64,000 bases of DNA, taken from NCBI GenBank assembly GCA_000004985.1, contig GG738900.1, one strand, 5' to 3'. The position numbers and the translations under genes were made by a program. Under the pieces are notes generated by a model, which saw nothing but the letters and a program-made list of their open reading frames with translations, was not told the origin of the DNA and searched no databases. Positions 1 to 29,945 of this stretch are shown one piece after another. The DNA comes from Naegleria gruberi (Eukaryota). Positions within the stretch are counted from its first letter, which is position 1. Each line of letters begins with the position of its first letter.

Positions 1-2153
1 TGTAAACATTTTAATAATTCTAATAATTCAAATTCTAATAATTCTTCTAATAATTCTAATAATAATTCAAATAATAGAAAATTAACAGAACAAGAATTTT
101 TAACATTAGAATTTAATAATTTCCATCAACAATATGATAAAACCATACTTTATAATACAATTAATAATGTACCTTATGATATAAATTTATATGGTAATCA
201 ACAAGTATATCAATATAAAGATAATTATAAAGAATTAATTAATAATAATGAAATATATGATATTAGATATTTATTAAGATATATAATGTATTTAATGACA
301 TGTTTTCCATTATCTAGTTTATATAAACAAAATAGTATATTTATTAGTATTGCATTTAGAGGTACATGTTCAAATGATTATTATGTTAGAATGTTAGCAT
401 ATGAAATTATTGGAATGTATTATAATTTCATTGTTAATCATGTTAATAGAAATCAAGAATCTGATATTTATGAAGTTTTAGTTTTAGTATTGAGACAAGT
501 TAAAATTTCAATGGCTGTTCCTTATTTAAAATTATCTTTACCTTGGTCAATGATGTTATCTGTTATTTGTAATTCAATTTTAAAAAGTGTTGAAGATAAT
601 TCTAATAATTCTAATAATAACAAGTATGATAACAATAAGTATGATTCAAAGTATGATTCANAGAAGAGTGAATCATTTGATAATAATAATTTAATGACCG
701 ATGAAAAGGATGAATCTAATCAATTAAATTCTAATCATCCTCACTCATCAGAAGAAGAAGAAGATTCAATAATTTACTTGTAACAGTATTAGAATCATTA
801 AGAAATCATTCATGTTTAAATGAATTAAATTTCTTTGAAGAATATATTAGACCATTATTAACATTAAATTTATTAACATTTAATAATAGAGTAACTTTGA
901 GAGATGTATCAAGATTCTTTGGATTTCAAAGACCATTTTTAAAATTAAAATCATTCCCAATTCATAGAGATTATATTAAATCTATTAATGTATTTGGAGT
1001 TAATTATTTAAAAGTATTATTATATGGATATCAAACAGATGAAGATTTTATGGATGAATATATTAAAAATAATACTATACAACATTTATTAATGTCATTT
1101 GATCAATTAGAATCATCAAAATCATATCAAGTTTATCAACAAATTTCTATTTGTAGAATTTTAATTGATGTTATTACTAGATTAAGAAAATCAAGAGAAA
1201 AATTATTAAAGGATTTTGCTTTAATTGATTGGATTAAAATACAATTACGTAAATCTACTAATTTAATCATTTCAAGTCAGACTTTTAATAGTAGAAATAA
1301 TAATGAAATTATTAGACTTTTAATGATTTTAATTTGTTCTATTTATAATACTTCTAATAATGGTAATACTTCTAATAATAATTCTAATAATAGTATTTTT
1401 AATAATAATAATAATAATATAACAAATGATTCAACAAGTGAATTATTATTTTATGAATCAAGTATATTAATTAATATAATATTAAATGATCAAATATTAT
1501 TAAATAATATGGGATTTAAAACAATATTATTTATTATAAAATATTGTAAATTTGAAAATATTAAAAAATTAATATCATCACATTCATTACAATTTAATTC
1601 AAATTTAATTCAATCAATTTTACAAACTGAATATTTAAATAATTATGAAAAGATTGAATTATTATTAGAATTATATTCAATTTGTAAAGATAAAAATTGG
1701 AATGAAATTTCAAATTCATTATTTAAAATTATTAAATTTGTAAATCAAGATTCAATTTATTTATTTATTAAATTTATTTATAAATTAATTAATGATAATA
1801 ATTATGAATTAAATATAATTAGAATTGTAACATTATTATATTATCAATATCAATATTATAATGATTTAAGATTTTTAGAAGGTTTAAATAGAATTATTAT
1901 TTTAATTATAATTGGAAAGGAAGATTATTATGAAAAAATGTTATTGAAAATGCAACAAACTGAAAGAAGTGAATTGGAAAATTATGAAAGATTTTTATTA
2001 AATTCACAATTATCTATTTTTATTAGAGAAAAATTATTACAACCACTTTCAGACTTGAATGCAATTAATATGATGAGTAGTACACGTAGTATTTTGGAAA
2101 ATTATATTAATCAATTCAATACTGCTGCTGGTAATCAAAAGAAACGTAAATAA
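1..2153 (+). CDS. Asn-rich hypothetical protein, 5'-partial (open from nt 1); probable frameshift or sequencing error near 735-786 joining ORFs 286..783 and 897..2153
   Basis: Frame 1 is open from position 1 (CKHFNNSNNSN...). Frame 0 is open from 735 to the stop at 2151. There is an ambiguous n at 661. The 3' 450 bp is duplicated at 9693..10146. Confidence 0.4.
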
Positions 2154-2188
2154 ATTTTACTTTTATATTCAAAATAATTACATGGGCA

Positions 2189-2548
2189 TTAACAATATTG
2201 TTTTTGAAATTCCCTCAATAATACATTAACATCATCACTATCCTCCAAGACTAATATGGTCCTCGTTGAAGTTTCCCACAAGCCAGCATAATCTAATTCC
2301 TTCCTTTGCTCTGGATCATAGAAATATGACAATCCATTATCATTAAATTCCTCTCTTAATACTTGAAGTAAAATACCTTGTTTTGGATAAACAGCCAATG
2401 AAATAGTTCGTTGGTGTATTCCTCTGATGAATGTTATGTGTTTGTCATCTAAATTTCCTAGTGCACCACTCTTTGAAAATCGAATCGACTTTCGTTTTCT
2501 TTCAGTGTGTGGGACAAAGTCTTTTTCTGTTGATTTTGAGATGAACAT
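2189..2548 (-). CDS. Hypothetical 119-aa protein (copy A)
   Basis: Intact ORF. Its copy at 10179..10538 differs by 2 aa. Codon usage resembles expressed genes. No family recognised. Confidence 0.45.
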   Translation of the reverse strand: MFISKSTEKDFVPHTERKRKSIRFSKSGALGNLDDKHITFIRGIHQRTISLAVYPKQGILLQVLREEFNDNGLSYFYDPEQRKELDYAGLWETSTRTILVLEDSDDVNVLLREFQKQYC

Positions 2549-2799
2549 TGTTTGAATTGGTTTACTGGTCGGTTTGTTTTTTTGAAGCTAGAAATGAGGC
2601 TGGAAAATTCTTTTTGAAAAACGCTAAAATGGTACGAATGACATATTAAAAAGGAAACAAAGCAGGTCAGTAAACCTATCTCTAGTCATGGAGTGTCAAC
2701 ATTGATTGTTCTCATTTGGAGATAATAAATTCATTTGCAAGAGATGCTAATTACATTAGGAAATGTTAAAAAGTCAATCAATTTGATTGAAAATTCATT

Positions 2800-5700
2800 T
2801 TATTCTTCTTTTGATGTAATTATATCATCATTAGAGATATTGATAATAACATTATCATTTGCACTATTAGGCAGCGTATTCATTCCTGTATTACTAGTAG
2901 TCGTAGTAGTCGTAGTATTATTAGTAGTATTTGTATTATTTCCATTATTATTATTATTTGTACTACTTGTACCATTATAATATTGTTTTAAGAAATCACC
3001 TTGTTGTTCAGTTTGTGAGAATGCAAATCCACGATAATTAAATTTAGCAACACTTGTAACAGCAGTTTCGAATACCTTCTTAATTTCTTGTAATTCTACG
3101 ACATTGAACTTTTTCTTTTTCTTCATCTTGACAGGTAAACCTTCTTCGAATGGGAAATTTTCCAAAATTTCTTGTCTTGATTTCTTTGATTTCTTTCTTC
3201 CTTGAATTTGGTAATAGGCATTTCTTGAACGCATTCTAACAAATCCTTTCCAGAATATATCTCTAATACAACACATAAATGTTACTAATAAAACAATCAT
3301 GTAAAATTGTGGTGTTAGGAATATTCTCCATCTTTCTGTAATTCCATAAAATTCAGATATAACTGGATATGGATATCCAAATATGTAATAAATACTTCCA
3401 TAAACAAATATAAATGCAGGCCATGATAATAAACTTCCAGTATAAATTAAAACATTAACCCATGTCCAAGATGATGTTTCAATACATAATTTAAGTGAAA
3501 TTACAACAAGTACACATGAATAAATGACAATACCAATAGTTTCTGGATCAATATCATGTCCATCAAGGAATTTGCTATCAACCAAACAATAATATGGAAC
3601 AAAGAAACAAACAAGTGAATGGAATAATGAATTAACAACCCATGATATAAATACTTTAGCATTGAACTAAAGTATTTTAAAACATTTCATATAATGATGA
3701 TGATTATTTGTTTACATAGAACAATAGAAAAAATATAGTTAATAATTAATAAAATTACTAAATAAATAATAAAAGAAAACTACTTACAAATCTATTCTTT
3801 TGACCTTGATAATAAAGTTCTGGGAATTTTTCAGCAACATCAGCTGATACATCTCTATCCATAACAGCTAATACAATAATTGGTAAACCAGAGAATATTA
3901 AATTGTAAAGAGCAATAGTCCACTTATCATGAATNNNNNNNNNNNNNNNNNNNNNNNNNNNNNNNNNNNNNNNNNNNNNNNNNNNNNNNNNNNNNNNNNN
4001 NNNNNNNNNNNNNNNNNNNNNNNNNNNNNNNNNNNNNNNNNNNNNNNNNNNNNNNNNNNNNNNNNNNNNNNNNNNNNNNNNNNNNNNNNNNNNNNNNNNN
4101 NNNNNNNNNNNNNNNNNNNNNNNNNNNNNNNNNNNNNNNNNNNNNNNNNNNNNNNNNNNNNNNNNNNNNNNNNNNNNNNNNNNNNNNNNNNNNNNNNNNN
4201 NNNNNNNNNNNNNNNNNNNNNNNNNNNNNNNNNNNNNNNNNNNNNNNNNNNNNNNNNNNNNNNNNNNNNNNNNNNNNNNNNNNNNNNNNNNNNNNNNNNN
4301 NNNNNNNNNNNNNNNNNNNNNNNNNNNNNNNNNNNNNNNNNNNNNNNNNNNNNNNNNNNNNNNNNNNNNNNNNNNNNNNNNNNNNNNNNNNNNNNNNNNN
4401 NNNNNNNNNNNNNNNNNNNNNNNNNNNNNNNNNNNNNNNNNNNNNNNNNNNNNNNNNNNNNNNNNNNNNNNNNNNNNNNNNNNNNNNNNNNNNNNNNNNN
4501 NNNNNNNNNNNNNNNNNNNNNNNNNNNNNNNNNNNNNNNNNNNNNNNNNNNNNNNNNNNNNNNNNNNNNNNNNNNNNNNNNNNNNNNNNNNNNNNNNNNN
4601 NNNNNNNNNNNNNNNNNNNNNNNNNNNNNNNNNNNNNNNNNNNNNNNNNNNNNNNNNNNNNNNNNNNNNNNNNNNNNNNNNNNNNNNNNNNNNNNNNNNN
4701 NNNNNNNNNNNNNNNNNNNNNNNNNNNNNNNNNNNNNNNNNNNNNNNNNNNNNNNNNNNNNNNNNNNNNNNNNNNNNNNNNNNNNNNNNNNNNNNNNNNN
4801 NNNNNNNNNNNNNNNNNNNNNNNNNNNNNNNNNNNNNNNNNNNNNNNNNNNNNNNNNNNNNNNNNNNNNNNNNNNNNNNNNNNNNNNNNNNNNNNNNNNN
4901 NNNNNNNNNNNNNNNNNNNNNNNNNNNNNNNNNNNNNNNNNNNNNNNNNNNNNNNNNNNNNNNNNNNNNNNNNNNNNNNNNNNNNNNNNNNNNNNNNNNN
5001 NNNNNNNNNNNNNNNNNNNNNNNNNNNNNNNNNNNNNNNNNNNNNNNNNNNNNNNNNNNNNNNNNNNNNNNNNNNNNNNNNNNNNNNNNNNNNNNNNNNN
5101 NNNNNNNNNNNNNNNNNNNNNNNNNNNNNNNNNNNNNNNNNNNNNNNNNNNNNNNNNNNNNNNNNNNNNNNNNNNNNNNNNNNNNNNNNNNNNNNNNNNN
5201 NNNNNNNNNNNNNNNNNNNNNNNNNNNNNNNNNNNNNNNNNNNNNNNNNNNNNNNNNNNNNNNNNNNNNNNNNNNNNNNNNNNNNNNNNNNNNNNNNNNN
5301 NNNNNNNNNNNNNNNNNNNNNNNNNNNNNNNNNNNNNNNNNNNNNNNNNNNNNNNNNNNNNNNNNNNNNNNNNNNNNNNNNNNNNNNNNNNNNNNNNNNN
5401 NNNNNNNNNNNNNNNNNNNNNNNNNNNNNNNNNNNNNNNNNNNNNNNNNNNNNNNNNNNNNNNNNNNNNNNNNNNNNNNNNNNNNNNNNNNNNNNNNNNN
5501 NNNNNNNNNNNNNNNNNNNNNNNNNNNNNNNNNNNNNNNNNNNNNNNNNNNNNNNNNNNNNNNNNNNNNNNNNNNNNNNNNNNNNNNNNNNNNNNNNNNN
5601 NNNNNNNNNNNNNNNNNNNNNNNNNNNNNNNNNNNNNNNNNNNNNNNNNNNNNNNNNNNNNNNNNNNNNNNNNNNNNNNNNNNNNNNNNNNNNNNNNNNN

Positions 5701-7285
5701 NNNNNNNNNNNNNNNNNNNNNNNNNNNNNNNNNNNNNNNNNNNNNNNNNNNNNNNNNNNNNNNNNNNNNNNNNNNNNNNNNNNNNNNNNNNNNNNNNNNN
5801 NNNNNNNNNNNNNNNNNNNNNNNNNNNNNNNNNNNNNNNNNNNNNNNNNNNNNNNNNNNNNNNNNNNNNNNNNNNNNNNNNNNNNNNNNNNNNNNNNNNN
5901 NNNNNNNNNNNNNNNNNNNNNNNNNNNNNNNNNNNNNNNNNNNNNNNNNNNNNNNNNNNNNNNNNNNNNNNNNNNNNNNNNNNNNNNNNNNNNNNNNNNN
6001 NNNNNNNNNNNNNNNNNNNNNNNNNNNNNNNNNNNNNNNNNNNNNNNNNNNNNNNNNNNNNNNNNNNNNNNNNNNNNNNNNNNNNNNNNNNNNNNNNNNN
6101 NNNNNNNNNNNNNNNNNNNNNNNNNNNNNATCATTAATTTAGTATCGTGTCCAGTGAAAATTGCAACACCAATCATAAAATCAGTATTTTTCAATGAAGA
6201 TCCACGTAAACAAATTTGTTCGGTATCAATGGATAATTTCTTTCCATTACTCAATACCATTGTACCTTCAAATTTATATAATCTATTGTTTGGTTTTTCA
6301 CATTCCACAATCATTCTAGTTTTATCAAGTGCTTCAGGTGTTGAAAGTTCCAAAGTTTCATGACGACATCTCTTAATTTTTAAATTAGTTTCACTTTATA
6401 TCCAAATTAATATGAATTCAATTGATTTTCCAATTTCCAATTTAATAAAATCAACAAGTTAATCAACATTCAATCCATAGAAATAACATACCCATCCAAA
6501 CTTGAAGTTTCAACATAACATAAACCTTGTGATTCACTTGAAGAGACAAGAATTAAATCACAAGGAAATGGTTCCTTATTATCTACTTTAACAATATCAC
6601 CTGTTTTTACATCTTTCCAAAATATATCCTCAAATTTGTCACCTCTCAAAACATGAGCAATTCTATTATTTGTAACTCTATCAGAATAGAGTCTTTTAAT
6701 ATCTTCATAAGCATCTTTAATCATTGTACAAATCAATACTATTAATAGTCATATATTAGATTTTGTTTAGTATAATACCTCCAATATAATACTTACCAAA
6801 TGCTAAAGGAAAGAATGCTGTAAATTGACCTGTTGGTGACAATGTTGGAATAGTTTGCAAAACTGCCATAAATAAAAAATCTATTTTCACAAATATTTCA
6901 TCATCCATTATTCAAATATTGTACAATTATAATATTTCATCATTCAAATAAGTGATAAATCATTAAAATACTTACAACAATTTGCAAATCTATGAAATTG
7001 TTCATATAAATTCTTAAATAAAAAGTTGTAGAAAGTATATTTAGTAGTCGTTATGGAATTATCAATAAATTTGTTGGTGGCGTTTGACATTTCATCATTT
7101 GCAAATAGTAATCTAGTTTTTGTTGCATCATGTTGTTGTTGAATATTAAAAGTATTAAAGGCTCCAACTTCATTCCCAGTAAACATATCCGATATACTTC
7201 TATGTTGTGTTGATGGATTATTAGTACTATTATAATTAGTATTAATTGTTGCAGAACTCATAATAGCAGTACTAGAATTTGACAT
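2800..7285 (-). CDS. Phospholipid-transporting P4-type ATPase (flippase), copy A, multi-exon, interrupted by assembly gap 3935..6129
   Basis: N-terminal exon 6944..7285 (RLLFANDE...TTKYTFYNFLFKNLYEQFHRFAN). Exon 6470..6736 (actuator region, DGETNLK-type). C-terminal TM exon 2800..3585. Exons mirror copy B. Confidence 0.7.
3935..6129. other. Assembly gap (2195 N)
   Basis: Run of N. Corresponds in length to 11930-14160 of copy B. Confidence 0.99.
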
Positions 7286-8177
7286 TACTAGTGTTGTATG
7301 TTCACGAGGTGATGTTAATGATGATGGTAGTGGTAGAGTATTTTGATTATTTGATGATTCATTCGAATGGTCTACTAGGGAATTTCCATCCCTCTGTTGT
7401 TTTGTTATTATTATTATTATATAAAGATGAATATAGTAATATTACATATTAAAATTGTTGTGTTTAGAGAATATGAAAATATACATACTGGTGTTCTGGT
7501 AAATTTGGCTTTTAATCTTTGAAACATGTTTTAAAGCCTTTTTCTTCCGAATAAATAATGTTATATGATATACTATTGTAGTTTTTGTGTTGATGATGGA
7601 GAGTGTTGATGATGGTGATGATGATAATTGTTTTGAAAACACAAGAAGAATGGATAATACTATCTACAAGTATAAAAGTGTGTTGTCCTATTCTCTATTC
7701 AAAGATAATAAAAACAATCAACAACAATAGTAATGGATAATAAATATGTTTTTCAAAGAAGAAGGCTTTGTTTGTTTTTGTTTTTCTTTTAAATAACTAC
7801 TTGAGTATCAAAGGTGGGAGAATCTTTTGAGCTTCCTTTAATCTTTTGGAAGCCACGGCCCAAAGTAAAGCGCTCATTTTGAGTCCGATTCAAGTGAGGC
7901 AAATAGCGCTAGTTTCTAATAGTCTACAAGAATAAATAGTCATGATACCATTTCGGAGTCATTGGAAGGTTTAGAATAAGGGAGGAAGGAAGAATATTCT
8001 AATGTAAAAATAAGTCAAAGAACGATTTGGATTTTCAATGTATTGCAATTTGATAATATACTTTCTATTTGAATAATACAAGAAGCTATTAAGGATTGAC
8101 TTTAAACTCTAAAAAACAAGCGCATTTATTTGCAAGTAACTTTGGGATAGTGTTTAGTTTTTGAAACAAAAATCAGA

Positions 8178-8251
8178 TACCGACAATGGGGCTCGAACCC
8201 ACGACCCCAGGATTAGAAGTCCTGTGCTGTATCCAACTGAGCTATGACGGC
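8178..8251 (-). tRNA. tRNA-Arg (anticodon UCU), copy A; variant with D-stem C13:C22 mismatch
   Basis: The reverse complement folds as a cloverleaf: GCCGTCA acceptor, GGTTCGAGCC T-arm, anticodon loop CTTCTAA. D-stem GCTC/CAGC, versus GCTC/GAGC in copy B. Confidence 0.55.
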
Positions 8252-8449
8252 TTTACGTTTCTTAGAGATCAAAACATCTTACATGAAATCCTTGATATTT
8301 TTCTGTAGGCTCCATATTTATTTAGTTTAGATTGATAAGCTTTTAACGTCATGTGCCACATCATTCTTTCATAATTTTATTCAATGGGATCTATTAAATC
8401 CAAATAATAACTATGTAATAGTTACAATAAAAAAATTAAATATTAAAAA

Positions 8450-9343
8450 ATGTCATCACAGTGTGATGATTTAACTCTTCCGAATAATCAAACCAATAAA
8501 ACATTAAAAGGTTATCAATCTAAACTAAATAAATTACAAACAATTACATATAGTGATTTATTTGGATCCAATGATTATATTAACGGTTCAATTATTTGCA
8601 TTTATTCTGATAATATTAATTATTTAATTTTAATTTTATCTAAAGATGTTAATACTATTCATGTTTTAAAATTTAATTTTGATCCAATTCATAAATTAAT
8701 CACAAATAAGGAAATATTTACTAAATATGCATTGAAACAGGATGTTAAACATTATCAATATTTTTATTCATTGAAATGTGAAAAATGTTTTTTAATTGCA
8801 AATATAATTAATATTCATTTATCAGAATTATGGAAAGTTGAAATTGAAAGTGGAAATATAATTTGGAGAAAGGAAATTCATGGAATTAATTCAATTGTTC
8901 AAGATGAAAGAGGAATTTTATTTTTAAATTCAAGTATTACTAAAAATGTGCAATTATTAGATTCCAAAACAGGAAATTGTCTTGGTAAAATTTCAATTGC
9001 ATCTGGTCATAGAATTTCAAATCATATTGGATTGGATTTTAATAATAATTTACTAGTTTCTAGTTTTACTAGGAGAGGATCATATTTACAAATTATTTCT
9101 AAAAAAGGCAACATTTCAAAAATAATACCATGTACACAAAATACGATACTCACACTATCAGATCCATATTATAAGAAAACATTTATACTAGAATCAGGAA
9201 ATCATGTTGTGGATGTTTATGATTCTGAATATACTAAATTAGAAGTATTGAATTTCACTTCACCAATTTTTTTATTTGCTTTTGTAAATGATTGTAATTT
9301 TATAATAACAGTTGGTCCTAGGGAAATATCTTTATTTGATTGA
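8450..9343 (+). CDS. Hypothetical 297-aa protein (copy A, intact)
   Basis: Long ORF with typical codon usage. Paralogous copy at 16521..17400. Confidence 0.45.
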   Translation: MSSQCDDLTLPNNQTNKTLKGYQSKLNKLQTITYSDLFGSNDYINGSIICIYSDNINYLILILSKDVNTIHVLKFNFDPIHKLITNKEIFTKYALKQDVKHYQYFYSLKCEKCFLIANIINIHLSELWKVEIESGNIIWRKEIHGINSIVQDERGILFLNSSITKNVQLLDSKTGNCLGKISIASGHRISNHIGLDFNNNLLVSSFTRRGSYLQIISKKGNISKIIPCTQNTILTLSDPYYKKTFILESGNHVVDVYDSEYTKLEVLNFTSPIFLFAFVNDCNFIITVGPREISLFD

Positions 9344-9399
9344 AAATCAATAAACAAGAAGAAACCAACACTCTTGCTTATAAAGATTACATCAAACTG

Positions 9400-9642
9400 A
9401 GGATCATCATTAATAAGCTTATTTCTTTGATTTTACTCCAAAATAAGTGGCAATCAAACCACTTGCAGCAGTTAATCCAATCAAGGAAAACAACTTGCAT
9501 TCATGTTCTGATAAGAACAGAGTCACCAATGCAATACTGCTCAATATGTTGGCACAAGTACAACCAAAACCAGTTGGCCAACCAACACCTCAATTCCACT
9601 GATAGGTAGCTCCGTATATTTCATTTTTTTAATTCAAAACAA
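9400..9642 (-). pseudogene. Degenerate fragment of the 3' part of the small membrane-protein gene (19715..20062)
   Basis: About 240 bp aligns to 19681..19925, with 15-16 bp deletions and substitutions. It ends at the N gap. Confidence 0.55.
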
Positions 9643-9692
9643 NNNNNNNNNNNNNNNNNNNNNNNNNNNNNNNNNNNNNNNNNNNNNNNNNN
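9643..9692. other. Assembly gap (50 N)
   Basis: Run of N between the duplication copies. Confidence 0.99.
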
Positions 9693-10146
9693 GAATTTCA
9701 ATTCATTATTTAAAATTATTAAATTTGTAAATCAAGATTCAATTTATTTATTTATTAAATTTATTTATAAATTAATTAATGATAATAATTATGAATTAAA
9801 TATTATTAGAATTGTAACATTATTATATTATCAATATCAATATTATAATGATTTAAGATTTTTAGAAGGTTTAAATAGAATTATTATTTTAATTATAATT
9901 GGAAAGGAAGATTATTATGAAAAAATGTTATTGAAAATGCAACAAACTGAAAGAAGTGAATTGGAAAATTATGAAAGATTTTTATTAAATTCACAATTAT
10001 CTATTTTTATTAGAGAAAAATTATTACAACCACTTTCAGATTTGAATGCAATTAATATGATGAGTAGTACACGTAGTATTTTGGAAAATTATATTAATCA
10101 ATTCAATACTGCCACTGCTACTGGTAATCAAAAGAAACGTAAATAA
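9693..10146 (+). CDS. 3' portion of the Asn-rich hypothetical gene (copy B; 5' part lies in the gap)
   Basis: Translation matches the C-terminus of gene 1 (…LLKMQQTERSELENYERFLL…GNQKKRK) with an ATA insertion. Confidence 0.4.
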
Positions 10147-10178
10147 ATTTTACTTTTATATTCAAAATTACATGGGCA

Positions 10179-10538
10179 TTAACAATATTGTTTTTGAAAT
10201 TCCCTCAATAATACATTAACATCATCACTATCTTCCAAGACTAATATGGTCCTCGTTGAAGTTTCCCACAAGCCAGCATAATCCAATTCCTTCCTTTGCT
10301 CTGGATCATAGAAATATGACAATCCATTATCATTAAATTCCTCTCTTAATACTTGAAGTAAAATGCCTTGTTTTGGGTAAACAGCCAATGAAATAGTTCG
10401 TTGGTGCATTCCTCTGATGAATGTTATGTGTTTGTCATCTAAATTTCCTAGTGCACCACTCTTTGAAAATCGTAACGACTTTCGTTTTCTTTCAGTGTGT
10501 GGGACAAAGTCTTTTTCTGTTGATTTTGAGATAAACAT
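10179..10538 (-). CDS. Hypothetical 119-aa protein (copy B)
   Basis: Paralogue of 2189..2548. Confidence 0.45.
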   Translation of the reverse strand: MFISKSTEKDFVPHTERKRKSLRFSKSGALGNLDDKHITFIRGMHQRTISLAVYPKQGILLQVLREEFNDNGLSYFYDPEQRKELDYAGLWETSTRTILVLEDSDDVNVLLREFQKQYC

Positions 10539-10793
10539 TGTTTGAATTGGTTTACTGGTTGGTTTGTTTTTTTGAAGCTAGAAATGAGGCTGGAAAATTC
10601 TTATACGCTAAAATGGTACGAATGACATATTAAAAAGGAAACAAAGCAGGTCAGTAAACCTATCTCTAGTCATGGAGTGTCAACATTGATTGTTCTCATT
10701 TGGAGATAATAAAGTCTCGACAATTCATTTGCAAGAGATACTAATTACATTAGGAAATGTTAAAAAGTCAATCAATTTGATTGAAAATTCATT

Positions 10794-13700
10794 TTATTCT
10801 TCTTTTGATTTAATTATATCATCATTAGAGATATTGATAATAACATTATCATTTGCACTATTAGGCAGCGTATTCATTCCTGTATTACTAGTGGTCGTAG
10901 TATTTGTATTATTTGTATTATTAGTATTATTATTATTTCCATTATTATTATTATTTGTACTACTTGTACCATTATAATATTGTTTTAAGAAATCACCTTG
11001 TTGTTCAGTTTGTGAGAATGCAAATCCACGATAATTAAATTTAGCAACACTTGTAACAGCAGTTTCGAATACCTTCTTAATTTCTTGTAATTCTACGACA
11101 TTGAACTTTTTCTTTTTCTTCATCTTGACAGGTAAACCTTCTTCGAATGGGAAATTTTCCAAAATTTCTTGTCTTGATTTCTTTGATTTCTTTCTTCCTT
11201 GAATTTGGTAATAGGCATTTCTTGAACGCATTCTAACAAATCCTTTCCAGAATATATCTCTAATACAACACATAAATGTTACTAATAAAACAATCATGTA
11301 AAATTGTGGTGTTAGGAATATTCTCCATCTTTCTGTAATTCCATAAAATTCAGATATAACTGGATATGGATATCCAAATATGTAATAAATACTTCCATAA
11401 ACAAATATAAATGCAGGCCATGATAATAAACTTCCAGTATAAATTAAAACATTAACCCATGTCCAAGATGATGTTTCAATACATAATTTAAGTGAAATTA
11501 CAACAAGTACACATGAATAAATGACAATACCAATAGTTTCTGGATCAATATCATGTCCATCAAGGAATTTGCTATCAACCAAACAATAATATGGAACAAA
11601 GAAACAAACAAGTGAATGGAATAATGAATTAACAACCCATGATATAAATACTTTAGCATTGAACTAAAGTATTTTAAAACATTTCATATAATGATGATGA
11701 TTATTTGTTTACATAGAACAATAGAAAAAATATAGTTAATAATTAATAAAATTACTAAATAAATAATAAAAGAAAACTACTTACAAATCTATTCTTTTGA
11801 CCTTGATAATAAAGTTCTGGGAATTTTTCAGCAACATCAGCTGATACATCTCTATCCATAACAGCTAATACAATAATTGGTAAACCAGAGAATATTAAAT
11901 TGTAAAGAGCAATAGTCCACTTATCATGAACAGTTGCACCTGAATAACCATTTGAGAAAATATACCACAATTGTGTTAAATATAAAAGACTATTCTTATA
12001 GAAACAATAGAGAACTAATTTTGAAACTCTTCTATAACTCCATCTACCATGAACAAGTAATAAACGTTTGAGAAATCTAAATTGACCAATTGCATAATCT
12101 GATGCATTCACTGCTTGTAATCCTTCTTGTCCTGAAATACCAATACCAACATGAGCACTTTGAATCATACTCACTATTATTATTTAATTGTTAATATGAT
12201 TAAATATATAATATAATATTAAATATAATATATAATATATAAGATGTGATTAAATATATAAGATTAAATATAAATATGAAAACATACCATCATTACTACC
12301 ATCTCCAATAGCTAAAGTAATACTATCAACATTATTCTTAATTAATAAAACTACATCTGATTTTTGTTTAGGTGAAACTCTACAACAAATAACCGATTTA
12401 CACTTGACACTCAAATTTAAGAATAAATTTCTCAAAGTATTTCCAGTATTAGCTGGATTGAGTGGATTATTATGTTCACCTTCTAAAATGGTTAATAATT
12501 TGTCACCTTCAACAACAAGACCCAATGCATCTGATGAAGAAATACCTTCACATGTTGATAAACTCTTTTCAAGGAAAGTTTTCAATTCTTCAATTGTATT
12601 TCCTTCAACTATTAAAAGTGTCATTCCAGAATTTAATAAATCACATGCAAAACCAATGTTAATAGCAGTTTCTAATTTGTCACCAGTCAATACCCAAATA
12701 TTAATACCTGCTCTTCTTAATTCATAAATTGTATCTCCAACTCCTTGTTGTAATTTATCTTCAATAGCTGTAGCTCCAACAAATTGTAAATTCTTTTCAA
12801 TTTTAGAACCAACCATTTCAACTTTAACTTGACGATTTTCAAGTGAAGTTTTAGCTTCTTCATATTCTCTATGCCATTGTTGATATTCTTCTTCATCGAG
12901 ATAAGCTTGAGCACATAACAATGTTCTCAAACCTTCATTACCAAATTGATCTAAATGTTCCAATGTAATTGGTCCATATTTTTCAACAGATTCTTCATTT
13001 AAAAGTGGATAAATCATTGAATCTGCTCCTTTGGTCATTATTAATAATTTACCTTCTGGATCTCTAACAATGACAGATTGTCTCTTTCTATCACTTGAAA
13101 ATTCAATAATATCTAATACTTGATATTCTATCGCTTCATTTTCCATTATTTTAATAGTAACTGTATTGGTAGTTCTATTAATAAATTCAATACCTAAATA
13201 TTTAGCTGCTTTAACAAGTGCTGCTTCATCAGGTGAAGAAGCTTGATAAATAATTTCATTTGGTTTGTTGTGACTTCTTTCAGGAATAACTGTATGACAA
13301 ACTGCTAACAAGGTAATGAAATTTTGAATATCTTGAGCATTTTCTTCATTCATCCAAGCTCCATCATTCATTCTCTCATCAAAGAATTGGAAATTTGGAT
13401 TATTTTTAACATGTTCAGGTCTATCATCTATAAGCGTAATGCCTTGTCTCTTGGCTGCTACATTGGCAATTTCAGTGATACCTGAACCATATGTTTTACC
13501 AGAAATTGAACATTTCATGACTGTTTTTATGATTGTTGTTGACAAAACAATTGTTATAACACTAATATGATTCAAAAAAAAACTTACAGTCCATCTTATT
13601 TTCAGTTAAAGTACCAGTCTTATCTGAAAAGATGTAATTAATTTGACCCAAATCTTCATTTAAAGCTGAAGATCTAACAAGGGCAGGAGTATCTGTAGCC

Positions 13701-15341
13701 TCATGATACATTGCTAAATCTTGACTAATCATAATACCTTGAACTAATTTAGCTGCTTCAATTGAAACGTAAAGTGAAATTGGAATTAAATTTGTAAGTA
13801 GAATGAGAATTGTCCAATATCCTTTAAATCCATTCCATGCAATATATTCAGAATCAATGACAACATCACGGAATAAATACCATGCTCCAGCATTAAAATT
13901 TGTCCAAACCATCAATGCAATATCACAACTCAAAACTAAAATGATTTGAACTACTAAAACTAGTAAAATTAACTTGTTAATCATTCTTTCAATTTTACTA
14001 ATTTTGTGTGGAGTTTCTCTGTAAAAATATTAAATATATCATTAAATATCATTATTAAATATCATTATATCATTAAATATCATTATATTAATAAGAGTAT
14101 CATGTCATTAAATTTCATAATTGATAATAATAAATATATAAGAATGGTTTAAAATAAAACATACTTTGTGTTCATCATTAATTTAGTATCGTGTCCAGTG
14201 AAAATTGCAACACCAATCATAAAATCAGTATTTTTCAATGAAGATCCACGTAAACAAATTTGTTCAGTATCAATGGATAATTTCTTTCCATTACTCAATA
14301 CCATTGTACCTTCAAATTTATATAATCTATTGTTTGGTTTTTCACATTCCACAATCATTCTAGTTTTATCAAGTGCTTCAGGTGTTGAAAGTTCCAAAGT
14401 TTCATGACGACATCTCTTAATTTTTAAATTAGTTTCACTTTATATCCAAATTAATATCCAAATTAATATGAATTCAATTGATTTTCCAATTTCCAATTTA
14501 ATAAAATCAACAAGTTAATCAACATTCAATCCATAGAAATAACATACCCATCCAAACTTGAAGTTTCAACATAACATAAACCTTGTGATTCACTTGAAGA
14601 AACAAGAATTAAATCACAAGGAAATGGTTCCTTATTATCTACTTTAACAATATCACCTGTTTTTACATCTTTCCAAAATATATCCTCAAATTTGTCACCT
14701 CTCAAAACATGAGCAATTCTATTATTTGTAACTCTATCAGAATAGAGTCTTTTAATATCTTCATAAGCATCTTTAATCATTGTACAAATCAATACTATTA
14801 ATAGTCATATATTAGATTTTGTTTAGTATAATACCTCCAATATAATACTTACCAAATGCTAAAGGAAAGAATGCTGTAAATTGACCTGTTGGTGACAATG
14901 TTGGAATAGTTTGCAAAACTGCCATAAATAAAAAATCTATTTTCACAAATATTTCATCATCCATTATTCAAATATTGTACAATTATAATATTTCATCATT
15001 CAAATAAGTGATAAATCATTAAAATACTTACAACAATTTGCAAATCTATGAAATTGTTCATATAAATTCTTAAATAAAAAGTTGTAGAAAGTATATTTAG
15101 TAGTCGTTATGGAATTATCAATAAATTTGTTGGTGGCGTTTGACATTTCATCATTTGCAAATAGTAATCTAGTTTTTGTTGCATCATGTTGTTGTTGAAT
15201 ATTAAAAGTATTAAAGGCTCCAACTTCATTCCCAGTAAACATATCCGATATACTTCTATGTTGTGTTGATGGATTATTAGTACTATTATAATTAGTATTA
15301 ATTGTTGCAGAACTCATAATAGCAGTACTAGAATTTGACAT
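10794..15341 (-). CDS. Phospholipid-transporting P4-type ATPase (flippase), copy B, complete, at least 7 exons
   Basis: Exons at 15000..15341, ~14848..14930, 14526..14792, 14149..14397, 13562..13984, 12250..13575, 11755..12174 and 10794..11650. Motifs DKTGTLT, TGDKLETA, GDGSNDG and MIQSAHVGIGISGQEG…VHGRWSYRR are present. Confidence 0.85.
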
Positions 15342-16254
15342 TACTAGTGTTGTATGTTCACGAGGTGATGTTAATGATGATGGTAGTGGTAGAGTATTTT
15401 GATTATTTGATGATTCATTCGAATGGTCTACTAGGGAATTTCCATCCCTCTGTTGTTTTGTTATTATTATTATTATATAAAGATGAATATAGTAATATTA
15501 CATATTAAAATTGTTGTGTTTAGAGAATATGAAAATATACATACTGGTGTTCTGGTAAATTTGGCTTTTAATCTTTGAAACATGTTTTAAAGCCTTTTTC
15601 TTCCGAATAAATAATGTTATATGATATACTATTGTAGTTTTTGTGTTGATGATGGAGAGTGTTGATGATGGTGATGATGATAATTGTTTTGAAAACACAA
15701 GAAGAATGGATAATACTATCTACAAGTATAAAAGTGTGTTGTCCTATTCTCTATTCAAAGATAATAAAAACAATCAACAACAATAGTAATGGATAATAAA
15801 TATGTTTTTCAAAGAAGAAGGCTTTGTTTGTTTTTCTTTTAAATAACTACTTGAGTATCAAAGGTGGGAGAATCTTTTGAGCTTCCTTTAATCTTTTGGA
15901 AGCCACGGGCCAAAGTCAAGCGCTCATTTTGAGTCCGATTCAAGTGAGGCAAATAGCGCTAGTTTCTAATAGTCTACAAGAATAAATAGTCATGATACCA
16001 TTTCGGAGTCATTGGAAGGTTTAGAATAAGGGAGGAGGGAAGAATATTCTAATGTAAAAATAAGTCAAAGAACGATTTGGATTTTCAATGTATTGCAATT
16101 TGATAATATATAACTTTCTATTTGAATAATACAAGAAGCTATTAAGGATTGACTTTAAACTCTAAAAAACAAGCGCATTTATTTGCAATTTTTGAAATAT
16201 TAGAAAATTAGAGGAAAGTAACTTTGGGATAGTGTTTTTGAAACAAAAATCAGA

Positions 16255-16328
16255 TACCGACAATGGGGCTCGAACCCACGACCCCAGGATTAGAAGTCCT
16301 GTGCTCTATCCAACTGAGCTATGACGGC
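16255..16328 (-). tRNA. tRNA-Arg (anticodon UCU), copy B, canonical D-stem
   Basis: Same sequence as copy A except G22 restores the C13:G22 pair. Both copies share a T5:T68 acceptor mismatch and a G1:T72 wobble. Confidence 0.65.
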
Positions 16329-16520
16329 TTTACGTTCCTTAAGGATCAAAACATCTTACATGAAATCCTTGATATTTTTCTGTAGGCTCCATTTAGTTTA
16401 GATTGATAAGCTTTTAACGTCATGTGCCACATCATTCTTTCATAATTTTATTCAATGGGATCTATTAAATCCAAATAATAACTATGTAATAGTTACAATA
16501 AAAAAATTAAATAGTAAAAT

Positions 16521-17400
16521 ATGTCATCACAGTGTGATGATTTAACTCTTCCGAATAATCAAACCAATAAAACATTAAAAGGTTATCAATCTAAACTAAA
16601 TAAATTACAAACAATTACAAATAGTGATTTATTTGGATCCAATGATTATATTAACGGTTCAATTATTTGCATTTATTCTGATAATATTAATTATTTAATT
16701 TTAATTTTATCTAAAGATGTTAATACTATTCATGTTTTAAAATTTAATTTTGATCCAATTCATAAATTAATCACAAATATGGAAATATTTACTAAATATG
16801 CATTGAAACAGGATGTTAAACATTATCAATATTTTTATTCATTGAAATGTGAAAAATGTTTTTTAATTGCAAATATAATTAATATTCATTTATCAGAATT
16901 ATGGAAAGTTGAAATTGAAAGTGGAAATATAATTTGGAGAAAGGAAATTCATGGAATTAATTCAATTGTTCAAGATGAAAGAGGAATTTTATTTTTAAAT
17001 TCAAGTATTACTAAAAATGTGCAATTATTAGATTCCAAAACAGGAAATTGTCTTGGTAAAATTTCAATTGCATCTGGTCATAGAATTTCAAATCATATTG
17101 GATTGGATTTTAATAATAATTTACTAGTTTCTAGTTTTACTAGGAGAGGATCATATTTACAAATTATTTCTAAAAAAAGGCAACATTTCAAAAATAATAC
17201 CATGTACACAAAATACGATACTCACACTATCAGATCCATATAATAAGAAAACATTTATACTAGAATCAGGAAATCATGTTGTGGATGTTTATGATTCTGA
17301 ATATACTAAATTAGAAGTATTGAATTTCACTTCACCAATTTTTTTATTTGCTTTTGTAAATGATTGTAATTTTATAATAACAGTTGGTCCTAGGGAAATA
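16521..17400 (+). pseudogene. 297-aa hypothetical gene, copy B, with frameshift in an A-run (~17175) and downstream stop
   Basis: Copy A reads ctaaaaaagg (6 A) but copy B has 7 A. The ORF terminates at 17243 although homology continues to ~17400. Confidence 0.5.
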
Positions 17401-17471
17401 TCTTTATTTGATTAAAATCAATAAAGAAGAAGAAACCAACACTCTTGCTTATAAAGACTACATCAAACTGA

Positions 17472-17531
17472 GGATCATCATTAATAAGCGATCAATTGCT
17501 GATCTTTATTTCTCTGATTTTACTCCAAAAT
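17472..17531. repeat. 60-bp direct repeat, left copy (junction of duplication copy B)
   Basis: Identical to 19681..19740 (ggatcatcattaataagcgatcaattgctgatctttatttctctgattttactccaaaat). Confidence 0.8.
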
Positions 17532-17804
17532 GTATGTGTTATTTGCTCTAGATGCTGATAATTGTTTATAAACCTCTCGCAACTTTTGTTTTTTTTCTAC
17601 ATCCACAGTATCATCGTCTGCCCATCTACAAATTTCAGCTAACCTTTTTTTGGCTGCTTCAGATGCATTATTCACAACCATGCTCTGTGCTTCAACTAAT
17701 TCTTGTTGTAACTTTTTTTCTTTCCTCTCTTTTAGTTCTTTACGTTTGATTCTATAATACTTCTTGCTCAGCGCTTTCTTTGAATAGAGTACCATGGCAC
17801 ACAT
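17520..17804 (-). CDS. Small Lys/Glu-rich coiled-coil protein (hypothetical)
   Basis: Intact ORF of 80-94 aa. No family recognised. Confidence 0.3.
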   Translation of the reverse strand: MCAMVLYSKKALSKKYYRIKRKELKERKEKKLQQELVEAQSMVVNNASEAAKKRLAEICRWADDDTVDVEKKQKLREVYKQLSASRANNTYILE

Positions 17805-17933
17805 TTTATTACAATTTAAAAAGAGACGAGACAGAATAAACTGCTTTAAGATTCACAACTTTTATCAAAATTTCGTGAATTGAAGATGTATTCACAAGGA
17901 AACAAAGTAAACTATCAAATAGCAAAGTAAAAA

Positions 17934-18282
17934 ATGTCCAGAGGTAAACGTACTATTGATAAAACAAAGCTATACAAAGCTATCGGAGCTAGCAATAGAG
18001 GAAATTTTGGTGAATTAGTAAAGAGAAGACACTCCAGAACCAGTTCAATATATCCCAACACTTGAAGATTTGAATAATTTCTTCATTTGTGAAGACTTGG
18101 AGTTTTATTTTGATGTCAAACATGGATTAATCCAAGGTCTAGATGATGATTTTAGGGGAAGTGTAATAAGTAAAACAGAATGCCTTTTGGCTGATAATCT
18201 AAATGTCATTAAGGATGTTATTGATTCAAATTTCCTATTATCCAGCAACATTCCAACTTATTTTAATCAATATTGTTTTTAG
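17934..18282 (+). CDS. Hypothetical small protein; two overlapping frames suggest a +1 frameshift or sequencing error near 18022-18060
   Basis: ATG 17934 frame stops at ~18063. A second frame is open from 18022 to 18282. Confidence 0.2.
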
Positions 18283-19455
18283 TAAAAAATGATTTAAGAA
18301 CTTCATAAGGATCAGAATTTTTGGTATGAATTTGTTTTAAAATTGATTGGAAATTCAACTTATTAAAATTAGTCCAAAAATTTCTAGCTCCCTCTGCTTT
18401 CTTTAATCTGTTCACTGATAATATTTCTATTTTATCTTCATCAAACCAAAAACAAAAAGTTTTTAGCATTGATTCACAATCATACTCTTTCTTGTACGGT
18501 CTTATGAAAGTATTTTGATCCAAAACGCAACCTAAATAATCATCAACACAAAAAGAAATAATACCAGCAAAAAAAGTTGTCTCATTAATTGCACATGCAA
18601 AACCCCAATCAATTAATATCAATTTACCATCATCAGTCCGCATAACATTATCAGGTCTAATATCTCTGTGACAAAATCCTTTTGAATGAATATCTTTTAA
18701 AAGATCTATTAATTGAAAACACTCCCTCCTTTTGGGAAGTTGGATTTGTATAAACTTATTTGATAAAGGATGATATTTCTTCATTATCAAAATCCCATCA
18801 GAAAATAAAGTTGGTTTTGGAATGTTATCTTGATCTTTCAACAATGTATCCAATATTTTGAATTCGTGACTAATAAACCCTAAACTATCTCTATTTTTAC
18901 AAATTTTGGCAACTTTTTCATTATCTGTTCAAAAANNNNNNNNNNNNNNNNNNNNNNNNNNNNNNNNNNNNNNNNNNNNNNNNNNTTACTCAATGAATCA
19001 TAAACAACTCTGAAAATGATAATTGTATCTAATGGAGAGAGTGGAGTTCTAATGTTTGGAATGATTCTATTCTTTACATTTTTAACCCAAAATTTAACAA
19101 TACAGTCCTTAATTATTGAAATACCTGAAGGAACAGAATCTGCACCAAAGCCAATATCTTCAGCCTCAACTTTCATATTTTCATTTGATCTCAACTCTAG
19201 TAACTCCTCAATAGCAGAGGATACTCTTAAAAATATCATTTTGAGACCATCTAATGATTCTTTGGCTGGATTCTCTTTCAATACGTAATCATCTATTGTA
19301 ATTTTGAATTTTTGGAGATGATTAAAATCAATATTTAACCAAGAATTATCTTCATCATCATCGTTTCTACTTTTAACATATTGAATTAAGGATTCCAAAA
19401 TAGCTGAGAAAATGTCAGTTTCATGATAAGCATATGTGTCCGTATCATTCTCCAA
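18263..19455 (-). CDS. Protein-kinase-like / phosphotransferase-fold protein (contains 50-N gap)
   Basis: Catalytic-loop-like HRDIRPDNV and DWGFA (DFG-like) motifs in the 3' ORF. The 5' ORF is contiguous across gap 18936..18985. Confidence 0.45.
18936..18985. other. Assembly gap (50 N)
   Basis: Run of N. Confidence 0.99.
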
Positions 19456-19680
19456 GTAATAAGTAATTTGATTAGGAATAACCTCAAATTAATAAATGAA
19501 CACTGGCACTGTTGCGGTGGGTACTATCTCCAATGGATTACAGTCCAGTGGATGGTCAACTATGTACATATACTTGCATCAAAAGGAGTATTTTCAAACA
19601 TTAAAGATGAAGTATTAATATAAAATAAAGGTTCTTCAGAATTAATATCCTTTGGGTCAATATCTAAACCTTTAGTTTAA

Positions 19681-19740
19681 GGATCATCATTAATAAGCGA
19701 TCAATTGCTGATCTTTATTTCTCTGATTTTACTCCAAAAT
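19681..19740. repeat. 60-bp direct repeat, right copy (overlaps 3' end of the membrane-protein gene)
   Basis: Identical to 17472..17531. Confidence 0.8.
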
Positions 19741-20062
19741 AAGTGGCAATCAAACCACTTGCAGCAGTTAATCCAATCAAGGAAAACAACTTGCTACTAC
19801 TTTCGAATTCATTTTCTGATAAGAACAGAGTCACCAATGCAATACTGCTCAATATGTTGGCACAAGTACAACCAAAACCAGTTGGCCAACCAACACCCCA
19901 ATTCCACTGATAGGCAGCTCCAAAAAATAGACCTAACAATCCACTCGTTATTGGACAAACAATGAATGGAGATAATGTGAAAAATTTACAAGCTAGTAGG
20001 AAGGTTGGAGCCGAGAGTATTAAACCACTTCCCAAACCAAAGGCAAATGCATATGAGGTCAT
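19715..20062 (-). CDS. Small multi-pass membrane protein (115 aa, Gly-rich TM helices; TMEM14-like architecture)
   Basis: Three to four hydrophobic segments with GxxxG-like motifs. Fragments of this gene recur at 9400..9642 and 17472..17531. Confidence 0.45.
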   Translation of the reverse strand: MTSYAFAFGLGSGLILSAPTFLLACKFFTLSPFIVCPITSGLLGLFFGAAYQWNWGVGWPTGFGCTCANILSSIALVTLFLSENEFESSSKLFSLIGLTAASGLIATYFGVKSEK

Positions 20063-20373
20063 TTTTTTATTCTATTCTTACTAATCCTTCCGAAATTTGG
20101 AACTGTGCACACGTTTGTTTTGATGTTACAAACATCGTTATTGAGAACTTCTCAAGAATTTTATCTGAACTTCTCTAAACAATCAAAATAGAAAAAGAGA
20201 CTTTGTTAAATAATTGTACAAATATAACCACACAAGAATTTATTTCGCAATTAATTGCGAGTTCAGTGATCATACGTTGAGCACTGAGGGGTCTGTCTGT
20301 TATGGCATGACAGAGAATTTAGTTTAACTTAGGGGAATGTTGGTTTGGAGTTTGTAATTTCATTCACAAGAAT

Positions 20374-21777
20374 TTACTTCTTGTGTAAAGAATCCAAACA
20401 TTGCTTAAAGTAAGCAGGATCCAATTGAAGAAGTCTAGTGGAAAGCAAATCGAGAGATCTCTTTCTATCACTCTCAGTTAATTTCATGCTAAATCCAACA
20501 AGTTCTTCAACGCAATTCTCAAATTCTTCAAAACTGTTCAAGACAAGATTATTTGAAGGTGGAACTGCGGGTATTGGTTGTGGAGGTTCTTGTGATGAGG
20601 AGGTTGTTGTTGTACGTTTCTTCTTCTTATTTTGTGATGGTTTTCTTGCATAAACTTTAAAAGCGGCTGATCTTAATGTCATGATTGGATTCTCCAAATC
20701 AGATGGGACATAATAATTAATCTGCCAACAAAAGTTAATCTTTTTATGGTGATATGAAACAGTACTAGATTGCACTTTCAAAACACCATTATATTCTTCG
20801 CAAGTAGAAGTTTCCTTATTCTTTGAATTCTTACTTTCAGGTTTTTTAGTTAAAGCAGATTCAACTACACCTTTCAAAACAGGATTTGATTTGTTATCTT
20901 GTTGAATTTCTTCAAAGGTTTGAGAATCGACCATACTAATTCTACCCAGCAAGAATGGTAAATCTTCTTTAACAGTATTCTTATTCAACATTGCTTGTTG
21001 TCTGATTTCATATTTCAAACTAGAATATAGTTTAGTTGGAACTTGTTCACAAGGTTCTTCACATCTAGTTTTACTTGTAATTGAAATTGAAAGTTTACCA
21101 GCAAACTTTTCACTTGTTTGAACAACTTTCCAACTTCTATCACCTTGATTTAGTAAATCAGAACAATTATCATCTTCTTCTTCATCATCACAAATAGATT
21201 CTTCTTCTTCCTTTTTACGTTTTGGAGCTGACTTTCTCTTCTTTTCAGTTTTAACTTGTGTTGTACTTAATGTGTTTGTAACAAGTTTTTTAGCTTTAGG
21301 AAGTGAATTTGTAACATCAGGAACTTGAAGTGTTAAAGATAAATTTGATCTCTTTGATAAAGTTGGTGATTCATCTGAAAGAGGACTTGTATTATTGGAA
21401 GAACTGCAAGAGGATGATGAAAAGTCAAAAGAAATTAATTCAGTATTCGAAGGGCTAAATAAATGAACCATATCTAATAATTGATCATGTTGTTGTTGTT
21501 GATGGTGCTGATGATGGTGGTGATGGTATGATTGAGCAATTTGAGTAGTACTTTCAAGTAAATGATCGAAAACGTCATTGAAATTTCGTTCAAAAGTGCC
21601 ACCTTCATCAATTCTACAGAATGAAGAAGTTGGAGTGTTACCTCTTGATGGAGAGAAGAAGTTAGAGAAGGCAGAAGATGGAGTAAGGAAGAGTGGTGAA
21701 ATGGTATGAATTGAGGAGCTCATGGTTAGTAAATTGGTTGATTGATTGAATGAATTGGAGGTAGTTTGATTAGACAC
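20374..21777 (-). CDS. Low-complexity Ser/His/Gln-rich hypothetical protein
   Basis: 467-aa ORF with poly-H/Q tract and basic patches. No family recognised. Confidence 0.4.
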   Translation of the reverse strand: MSNQTTSNSFNQSTNLLTMSSSIHTISPLFLTPSSAFSNFFSPSRGNTPTSSFCRIDEGGTFERNFNDVFDHLLESTTQIAQSYHHHHHQHHQQQQHDQLLDMVHLFSPSNTELISFDFSSSSCSSSNNTSPLSDESPTLSKRSNLSLTLQVPDVTNSLPKAKKLVTNTLSTTQVKTEKKRKSAPKRKKEEEESICDDEEEDDNCSDLLNQGDRSWKVVQTSEKFAGKLSISITSKTRCEEPCEQVPTKLYSSLKYEIRQQAMLNKNTVKEDLPFLLGRISMVDSQTFEEIQQDNKSNPVLKGVVESALTKKPESKNSKNKETSTCEEYNGVLKVQSSTVSYHHKKINFCWQINYYVPSDLENPIMTLRSAAFKVYARKPSQNKKKKRTTTTSSSQEPPQPIPAVPPSNNLVLNSFEEFENCVEELVGFSMKLTESDRKRSLDLLSTRLLQLDPAYFKQCLDSLHKK

Positions 21778-22655: not shown

Positions 22656-22775
22656 ATGGCTACGGCCATATCACGATGAATGCACCTCATCCCGTCCGAT
22701 TTGAGAAGTTAAGCATCGTCGAGCCACATCAGTACTGAGGTTGGAGACAACTTGGGAACCTGTGGTGCTGTAGTC
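22656..22775 (+). rRNA. 5S ribosomal RNA gene, copy 1
   Basis: 120 nt. Terminal helix I GGCUACGG/CUGUAGUC. Internal box A AAGTTAAGC. Conserved CAUCCCGUCCGAU and GGUUGGAGACAAC…GGGAAC…GGUGCUGUA. Followed by a TTTTT Pol III terminator. Confidence 0.8.
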
Positions 22776-22953
22776 TTTTTACCTTAATAACTTTTAATAA
22801 CTTGAGTGTTAAAAACTGGAGAAGTTTTCACATTCACTTTAATTTCTCACCAAAACAGACTATCTTTCATGTGAGACATCACAAAAGTACTGTTTTCATA
22901 TTTTTGGAAATTTTCTAAATTGGGAAACCATTGTTTTCATTAATACGAAAAAA

Positions 22954-24055: not shown

Positions 24056-24147
24056 GATGATGAAAATCCAATAGAAGGATAATTAGGATTATTTATTTCT
24101 ATACTTATTTACAATTAAAATGATAAACTTTGGTCAACTAACTTGGT

Positions 24148-28875: not shown

Positions 28876-28932
28876 ATCCTCAATATCAATATCACCAATA
28901 AAATCATTTGTCTTGTGAAAGCTCATCTCTGG

Positions 28933-29823: not shown

Positions 29824-29945
29824 TTTTTATTAATTTTAAATTTAAAAAAAATACATAAAAAAGCCTTTTGATTTCAGCTTGTTGATTTTAATATCATCAT
29901 ATAATGTATTATTGATGATTTCTATCGGATGAGAGTGAAATTAAT

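Follow-up and report, generated by a model that had tools for sequence, protein, structure and literature searches.

Gene content of the repeated region

The window analysed here is a stretch of 64,000 nucleotides (nt) from contig GG738900.1 of the Naegleria gruberi assembly GCA_000004985.1, with a G+C content of 31%. It contains two collinear versions, copy A and copy B, of a region of about 8 kb, each with the 3' end of an Asn-rich gene, a 119-amino-acid (aa) gene, a P4-ATPase (flippase) gene, a transfer RNA (tRNA) gene for arginine, and a 297-aa gene. All of these components had been named in an earlier reading of the sequence (the original prediction) and were found. Ten open reading frames (ORFs) of the window match N. 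gruberi NEG-M proteins exactly, all on one 312,004-bp scaffold. The first pointer to Naegleria came from an ADH-like ORF, whose best named hits are in this genus. The source is N. gruberi and not a dictyostelid, as the original prediction had assumed.

Contigs c1 (1-3934), c2 (6130-9642), c3 (9693-18935), c4 (18986-32845) and c5 (32915-64000) are separated by N runs at 3935-6129 (2195 N), 9643-9692 (50 N), 18936-18985 (50 N) and 32846-32914 (69 N). With two of the four gaps being exactly 50 N long, this length looks to us like a floor or default value. A further single N at 661 lies within ORF 286-783 in otherwise continuous sequence and may be an unresolved or heterozygous consensus base. The repeat, its flanks and its genes are arranged as follows.

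1-1705: flank L, single-copy, with the 5' part of the Asn-rich gene
1706-3934: left segment of copy A, at the end of c1, with the Asn-rich 3' part (448 bp), the 119-aa gene and the last flippase exons (2800 onward, minus strand)
3935-6129: 2195 N, a sized gap that interrupts the flippase of copy A; the copy-B counterpart is 11931-14173 (2243 bp)
6130-9418: right segment of copy A, in c2, with the flippase 5' exons, tRNA-Arg(TCT) and the intact 297-aa ORF
9400-9642, minus strand: M', a decayed copy of the 3' part of gene M, including X'
9643-9692: gap of 50 N at the presumed A-to-B junction
9693-17470: copy B, unbroken within c3
17471-17531: left copy of repeat X, 61 bp, 100% identical to 19680-19740
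17532-19679, minus strand: segment Z, 2.15 kb, found only beside copy B and containing the gap 18936-18985
19680-19740: right copy of X
19715-20062, minus strand: gene M, intact, a small membrane protein of 115 aa
from 20063: flank R, single-copy
897-2153, plus strand: Asn-rich gene of copy A, its 5' part in flank L and its 3' 448 bp in the repeat
9694 to the stop at 10146, plus strand: Asn-rich 3' part of copy B, an open reading frame throughout
2189-2548 (A) and 10179-10538 (B), minus strand: 119-aa gene, intact in both copies
15341 to 10794, minus strand: P4-ATPase gene of copy B, complete, 8 exons
8178-8251 (A) and 16255-16328 (B), minus strand: tRNA-Arg(TCT)
8450-9343, plus strand: 297-aa ORF of copy A, intact
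16521-17243, plus strand: 297-aa gene of copy B, cut to 240 aa by a change from A6 to A7 at 17172

A P4-ATPase gene of about 4.5 kb had been predicted for each copy. This holds for copy B; in copy A, where the ATG is found at 7285 on the minus strand, only about half of the gene is sequenced. The DKTGTLT phosphorylation motif of the P-type ATPase core is encoded in ORF 13562-13984 (minus strand), and the homologues carry a flippase annotation. As in P4-ATPases of the Drs2/ATP8A type, PhoLip_ATPase_N (PF16209, E = 1.5e-14), E1-E2_ATPase, Cation_ATPase, HAD hydrolase and PhoLip_ATPase_C (PF16212, E = 3.2e-52 and 3.1e-19) follow each other in this order, the first and last being P4-specific, and nothing unusual was seen in the Naegleria protein. 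The only part of it that differs between the copies is the C-terminal tail, which is rich in Asn and Thr and of low complexity. The best relatives share just 65-70% protein identity and are encoded on short metagenome contigs (L001 and L002), which have no neighbour genes and no tRNA in common with the Naegleria locus. A literature search returned nothing on Naegleria P4-ATPases.

In case of the 297-aa protein, no homologue at all was found in the protein search, and it is regarded as an orphan ORF. Exact look-ups showed that the 119-aa, 297-aa, 240-aa and M proteins, together with several start-codon variants, are absent from the public protein collection.

Divergence between the two copies

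Comparison of the window with itself by BLAST aligned 1706-3933 with 9694-11930 (97.8% identity over 2247 columns) and 6130-9418 with 14174-17489 (97.8% over 3329 columns), i.e., 5.5 kb in total at 97.8% identity including gaps (E = 0), with offsets between the copies of 7988-8071 bp. This agrees with the predicted pair of collinear copies of about 8 kb and 97-99% identity. The base-by-base alignment contains 38 substitutions (0.69%) and 13 indel events across 5517 bp, which are distributed over four blocks of copy A.

1706-2933 (1228 bp): 22 substitutions, 5 indels
2934-3933 (1000 bp): no substitutions, no indels
6130-7775 (1646 bp): 2 substitutions, both synonymous, and 1 indel (12 bp, intronic)
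7776-9418 (1643 bp): 14 substitutions, 7 indels

The near-identical central block corresponds to the flippase and 490 bp upstream of it and has sharp edges at 2933/2934 and 7775/7776. Two changes in its 2646 bp stand against 1-2% divergence plus indels in the flanking blocks (binomial P = 1e-8). The statement that the copies have already diverged thus holds unevenly, both changes in the flippase block being synonymous (codon effects in the flippase were read from the exon ORFs). Such a deficit requires either gene conversion between paralogues or a tract of loss of heterozygosity between alleles.

Sequencing error is ruled out as the source of the differences, which are mostly substitutions and indels of 3-29 bp. 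Due to this composition, two distinct versions, with the gene contents and lesions listed here, were truly present in the sequenced DNA. That they represent two loci rather than two alleles, that they stand in tandem, and that gene conversion has acted on them, we infer.

The lesions are spread over both copies. The predicted 29-bp insertion in copy B is present, but at 16187-16215 rather than at 16195-16225. The D-stem mismatch assigned to the copy-A tRNA was found as well: a C replaces G at tRNA position 22, which results in a C13/C22 mismatch and lowers the score by 5.6 bits (59.6 versus 65.2 bits). The frameshift reported for the 297-aa gene of copy B is the A6 to A7 change; two nonsynonymous changes precede it and a third substitution lies past it.

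Between the copies, the 119-aa gene differs by 5 synonymous and 2 nonsynonymous changes and is, judged by this ratio, under purifying selection in both. Constraint between the versions is also apparent in the flippase and in the 3' part of the Asn-rich gene, the latter having 2 synonymous and 1 nonsynonymous change plus an in-frame indel of 6 bp.

Gene M, repeat X and segment Z

The sequence to the right of each copy differs. Gene M is a real conserved gene, its full-length product being 58% identical to N. gruberi EFC38273.1 (E = 2.5e-31). Beside copy A, its decayed relative M' aligns at 9419-9613 with 19715-19921 (92% identity counting a 12-bp gap in the BLAST self-comparison). All four changes in M' are nonsynonymous, including one from TGG to a TGA stop codon; in addition, a 12-bp deletion is present and similarity is absent 5' of codon 48, so that the first 47 codons are lost. 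M' looks as if it had evolved without constraint for the whole time of the A/B divergence. As originally described, the distal fragments of this membrane-protein gene are unequal, with about 195 bp plus X next to copy A and 61 bp next to copy B.

Just past the stop codon of M', X' beside copy A carries a 16-bp deletion and one substitution. Since the two X copies on either side of Z are 100% identical, the duplication of X is younger than the split of A and B. The left X supplies the stop codon and the 3' end of ORF 17520-17804. Segment Z carries a kinase-like gene with an HRDIRPDN catalytic loop (Pkinase, E = 3e-9), and no donor copy of Z was found in the window.

A search of 1-1800 and of the rest of the window gave no significant match for the 30-nt tail of c2 (9613-9642); its best placement is at the ATG of M (p ~0.06). 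Between the flanks of the four gaps, no hidden overlaps were found.

Origin of the two versions

We favour a genuine recent head-to-tail segmental duplication with a unit of at least 8 kb in N. gruberi NEG-M, at a rough probability of 0.48. The original prediction had offered a young gene amplification or an assembly artefact; its two versions do exist, and by informal weighing tandem duplication and split haplotypes stand about even. The artefact had been described as a collapsed or expanded repeat in general. Since the source is a heterozygous diploid, uncollapsed haplotypes are the relevant kind. In that case a single locus per chromosome, with the true order L-U-(Z)-M-R (U being the unit) and one flippase per haplotype, would have been assembled twice, an explanation to which we give a somewhat less than even chance.

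In case of a duplication, the unit copied would comprise part or all of the Asn-rich gene, the 119-aa, P4-ATPase, tRNA-Arg(UCU) and 297-aa genes, and the 3' part of M. A single unequal exchange or replication-based event would have duplicated 8 kb or more, with its end within M or immediately upstream of it. Redundant pieces may then have decayed (in copy A, M' and the D-stem of the tRNA; in copy B, the 297-aa gene), while about 4.8 kb spanning the flippase and the region upstream of it would have stayed identical or been re-homogenised by gene conversion between the copies. Z (2.15 kb) would later have entered beside copy B between the 61-bp copies of X, or have been lost beside copy A. The identical central block, probably together with an identical stretch at the junction, could have broken the Sanger assembly into the observed contigs and gaps. 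No repeat able to mediate unequal crossing-over is visible at the unit ends in the self-comparison.

The distribution of lesions fits such a history. Disabling lesions occur in 2 of the 5 protein-coding genes and on opposite copies (M' in A, the 297-aa gene in B), next to the weakened tRNA of copy A. A redundant junction fragment would be expected to decay in the way seen in M', whereas an allele would rarely do so, which favours a real duplication. With two haplotypes, one chromosome would need an M allele disabled several times over (stop codon, deletions of 12 bp and about 126 bp, four of four changes nonsynonymous) and the other a frameshifted 297-aa allele.

Several features of the assembly count for a duplication as well. 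The outer contig ends at 9642 and 9693 are located where similarity stops, as at a repeat fork and as expected of a repeat junction; the inner ones are found within the identical block, at depths of 92 and 1000 bp. The gap in copy A, sized at 2195 N, agrees with the 2243 bp of copy B. Flanks L and R also hold intergenic DNA, yet were not split by the assembler. On the haplotype explanation, the homologues would diverge in two short blocks (1-2% plus indels) and in whether the 2.2-kb Z is present, and be identical in the flippase through a loss-of-heterozygosity or mitotic gene-conversion tract. Heterozygosity would thus have to be confined to islands of 1.2 and 1.8 kb, while the intergenic DNA of L and R merged cleanly.

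A second segmental copy in the window lends further credit to a real duplication. The tRNA-Glu(TTC) and the last 67 codons of an ADH-like gene (37581-38621, minus strand) are copied from 37432-37778 to 40900-41295, 3.47 kb downstream, with 96.6% nucleotide and 95.5% amino-acid identity. Due to its location inside one unbroken contig, a scaffolding artefact does not apply here, which shows that this genome does contain real segmental copies linked to a tRNA.

The following observations weigh against a tandem duplication and for split haplotypes. The A-to-B junction falls in the 50-N gap 9643-9692, and copy B starts at the first base of c3 directly after this gap. Similarity extends right up to where c3 begins; the left edge of copy B is thus a contig edge, and the repeat boundary on this side is not seen. 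The original prediction had pointed out that the N gaps lie where long identical sequence would confuse an assembler, and both the flippase gap and the junction gap do lie at the critical places. The source is a shotgun Sanger draft by the Joint Genome Institute (table in PMC9928731) of a member of Naegleria, described as "mainly a heterozygous diploid" (PMC9928731). Mosaic heterozygosity in N. gruberi itself is mentioned in a statement of PMC6201504 that cites the genome paper. The c1 suffix 1706-3934 dovetails with the c3 prefix 9693-11930, and c3 contains 93.6% of c2 at 97.8% identity, a share that rises to 99% when Z is passed over into c4. The layout thereby shows both the overlapping-contig and the contained-contig signature of haplotype mis-assembly, in which a duplicated overlapping or contained contig of at least 96% identity lies next to its twin (Kelley and Salzberg 2010, PMC2864568). 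The divergent blocks would have stayed unmerged, and the scaffolder would have placed the haplotype-A contigs (the c1 end and c2) ahead of the haplotype-B contig c3.

In size and pattern, the A/B divergence equals that between NEG-M and another N. gruberi lineage, i.e., about 0.2% in coding and 1-3% plus indels in intergenic sequence. The between-lineage comparison was read from metagenome contig L003, which is 98.2% identical to 26415-29467. Its 2112-bp coding sequence differs by 4 synonymous changes and encodes an identical protein, and its intergenic DNA has 12 substitutions and 5 indels over 350 bp. The Asn-rich fragment of copy B keeps its frame, although it should have been non-functional from the start if the gap really measures about 50 bp. 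Such constraint is unexpected for a promoterless fragment of about 450 bp and favours haplotypes. The purifying selection on the 119-aa gene in both copies belongs to the same side.

Three further observations are in agreement with split haplotypes. At 50 N, the junction gap is of the length that looks like a floor value; beyond a 126-bp deletion, the start-codon region of M may follow on from the 30-nt tail of c2 (p ~0.06); and the genes of EFC38273.1 and EFC35986.1 form a 99% identical pair on two different scaffolds of the same assembly. The two encoded proteins are 114-aa paralogues of M that differ by one residue (located on scaffolds of 250 kb and 44.8 kb, respectively), and the pair is either a very recent duplication or an allelic scaffold pair.

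One variant of the tandem duplication fits all of the sequence evidence. In this variant the unit would extend further to the left and the junction gap would hide a collapsed, near-identical copy of L, at the cost that the 50-N gap size would have to be wrong.

Alternatively, the second copy may be real without being in tandem, c2 or c3 stemming from a paralogous locus elsewhere and having been pulled in by mate pairs in the identical flippase block. Every link between contigs is a scaffold gap, and nothing in the window can be matched with confidence to the 30-nt end of c2. We nevertheless consider a distant paralogue very improbable: the two halves of copy A and the whole of copy B add up exactly to two collinear units, the gap sized at 2195 N is in line with the 2243 bp of copy B, and c2 is linked by M' and X to what directly follows copy B on the right.

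Returning to a duplication in tandem, it is tempting to speculate that repeated gene conversion preserved the 4.8-kb block of flippase and promoter under selection for two working flippases, while the passenger genes decayed. We regard this combination as unlikely. The claim that flippase dosage is doubled is unproven, with the A-to-B junction in a gap and half of the copy-A flippase unsequenced.

Comparison with known systems

The locus resembles young tandem duplications with interlocus gene conversion in its collinear head-to-tail units, in the decaying partial gene at the presumed junction, and in a homogenised, sharp-edged central tract flanked by 1-2% divergence. It differs from them in that the junction is unsequenced, no mediating repeat is visible at the unit ends, and half of the main gene is absent from one copy.

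In Dictyostelium discoideum, recent local duplications have reportedly given rise to paired tRNA genes. Similar to these, tRNAs of the same anticodon are found a few kb apart in near-identical flanks in the Naegleria window (tRNA-Arg at about 8.1 kb, tRNA-Glu at 3.47 kb). However, Naegleria belongs to a different supergroup and the tRNA is a passenger in a larger unit. A tRNA-targeted retroelement was not seen at the Naegleria locus.

With false duplications caused by haplotype mis-assembly (PMC2864568; Ko et al. 2022, PMC9516828), the locus shares a heterozygous diploid Sanger draft, adjacent duplicate contigs separated by gaps, both contig signatures, and an identity above 96%. The artefact in PMC2864568 is defined by mate-pair and coverage criteria; the comparison made here covers the source, contig layout and identity. 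In contrast to such artefacts, the Naegleria versions carry disabling lesions in different genes and a gene-bearing indel of 2.2 kb.

If the duplication is true, NEG-M has two near-identical P4-ATPase copies and one extra tRNA-Arg(UCU), as the result of a routine young duplication with gene conversion. Doubled flippase and tRNA dosage would follow only if the unsequenced half of copy A is intact. If the second copy is an artefact, four or five gene models and some 8 kb of this scaffold are redundant. Gene counts and paralogue inferences for N. gruberi, with an assembly about 10 Mb larger than those of congeners (PMC9928731), would then need matching caution. Both surviving explanations are ordinary and of little import beyond curation. 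Should conversion under selection be true, the locus would show on a small scale, and in a form that can be dated, how a lipid flippase of a free-living heterolobosean undergoes concerted evolution and selection on dosage. As a practical lesson, where the edges of a recent-looking duplication in this assembly fall on contig ends, read depth should confirm the duplication before it is interpreted. Nanopore and EM-seq data of NEG-M are public (PMC12344493); a literature search returned no long-read reassembly of this strain.

Other features of the scaffold

Several further features were observed in the window outside the repeated region.

22658-22776 (plus strand), 42220-42338 (minus strand) and 55856-55974 (minus strand): three dispersed 5S rRNA genes
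24151-25272: exact match to EFC39380.1, "conventional actin"
26764-28872: exact match to EFC39309.1
29946-31253: exact match to EFC39310.1
35389-37342 and 39010-40698 (both plus strand): PP4R3 (SMEK) gene, split over two ORFs
37581-38621 (minus strand): ADH-like ORF, 346 aa, intact
46977-50789 (plus strand): ORF of 1270 aa

The 5S rRNA genes score 98-105 bits against Rfam. Each of them is located within a repeat of 137-154 bp, the repeats being 96-98.5% identical to one another. The 5S genes thus lie scattered between protein-coding genes of this scaffold. The best match of the ADH-like ORF is a 52%-identical N. gruberi paralogue. The annotated N. gruberi proteins include no exact match to this ORF, for which either a missing annotation or a different gene model may be the reason. 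Near the split PP4R3 gene, a protein with seven DUF4116 repeats is encoded. The 1270-aa ORF contains NHL and teneurin-type EGF repeats and, at the DNA level, internal tandem repeats with a period of about 170 or 340 bp and 72-80% identity.

Contig L003 (ENA ERZ929261, run ERR1078381, PRJEB11402) encodes an identical 703-aa copine-like protein, and a second contig of the same metagenome sample, L004, encodes EFC35986.1 exactly. Due to these two matches, a close relative or another strain of N. gruberi was present in that sample.

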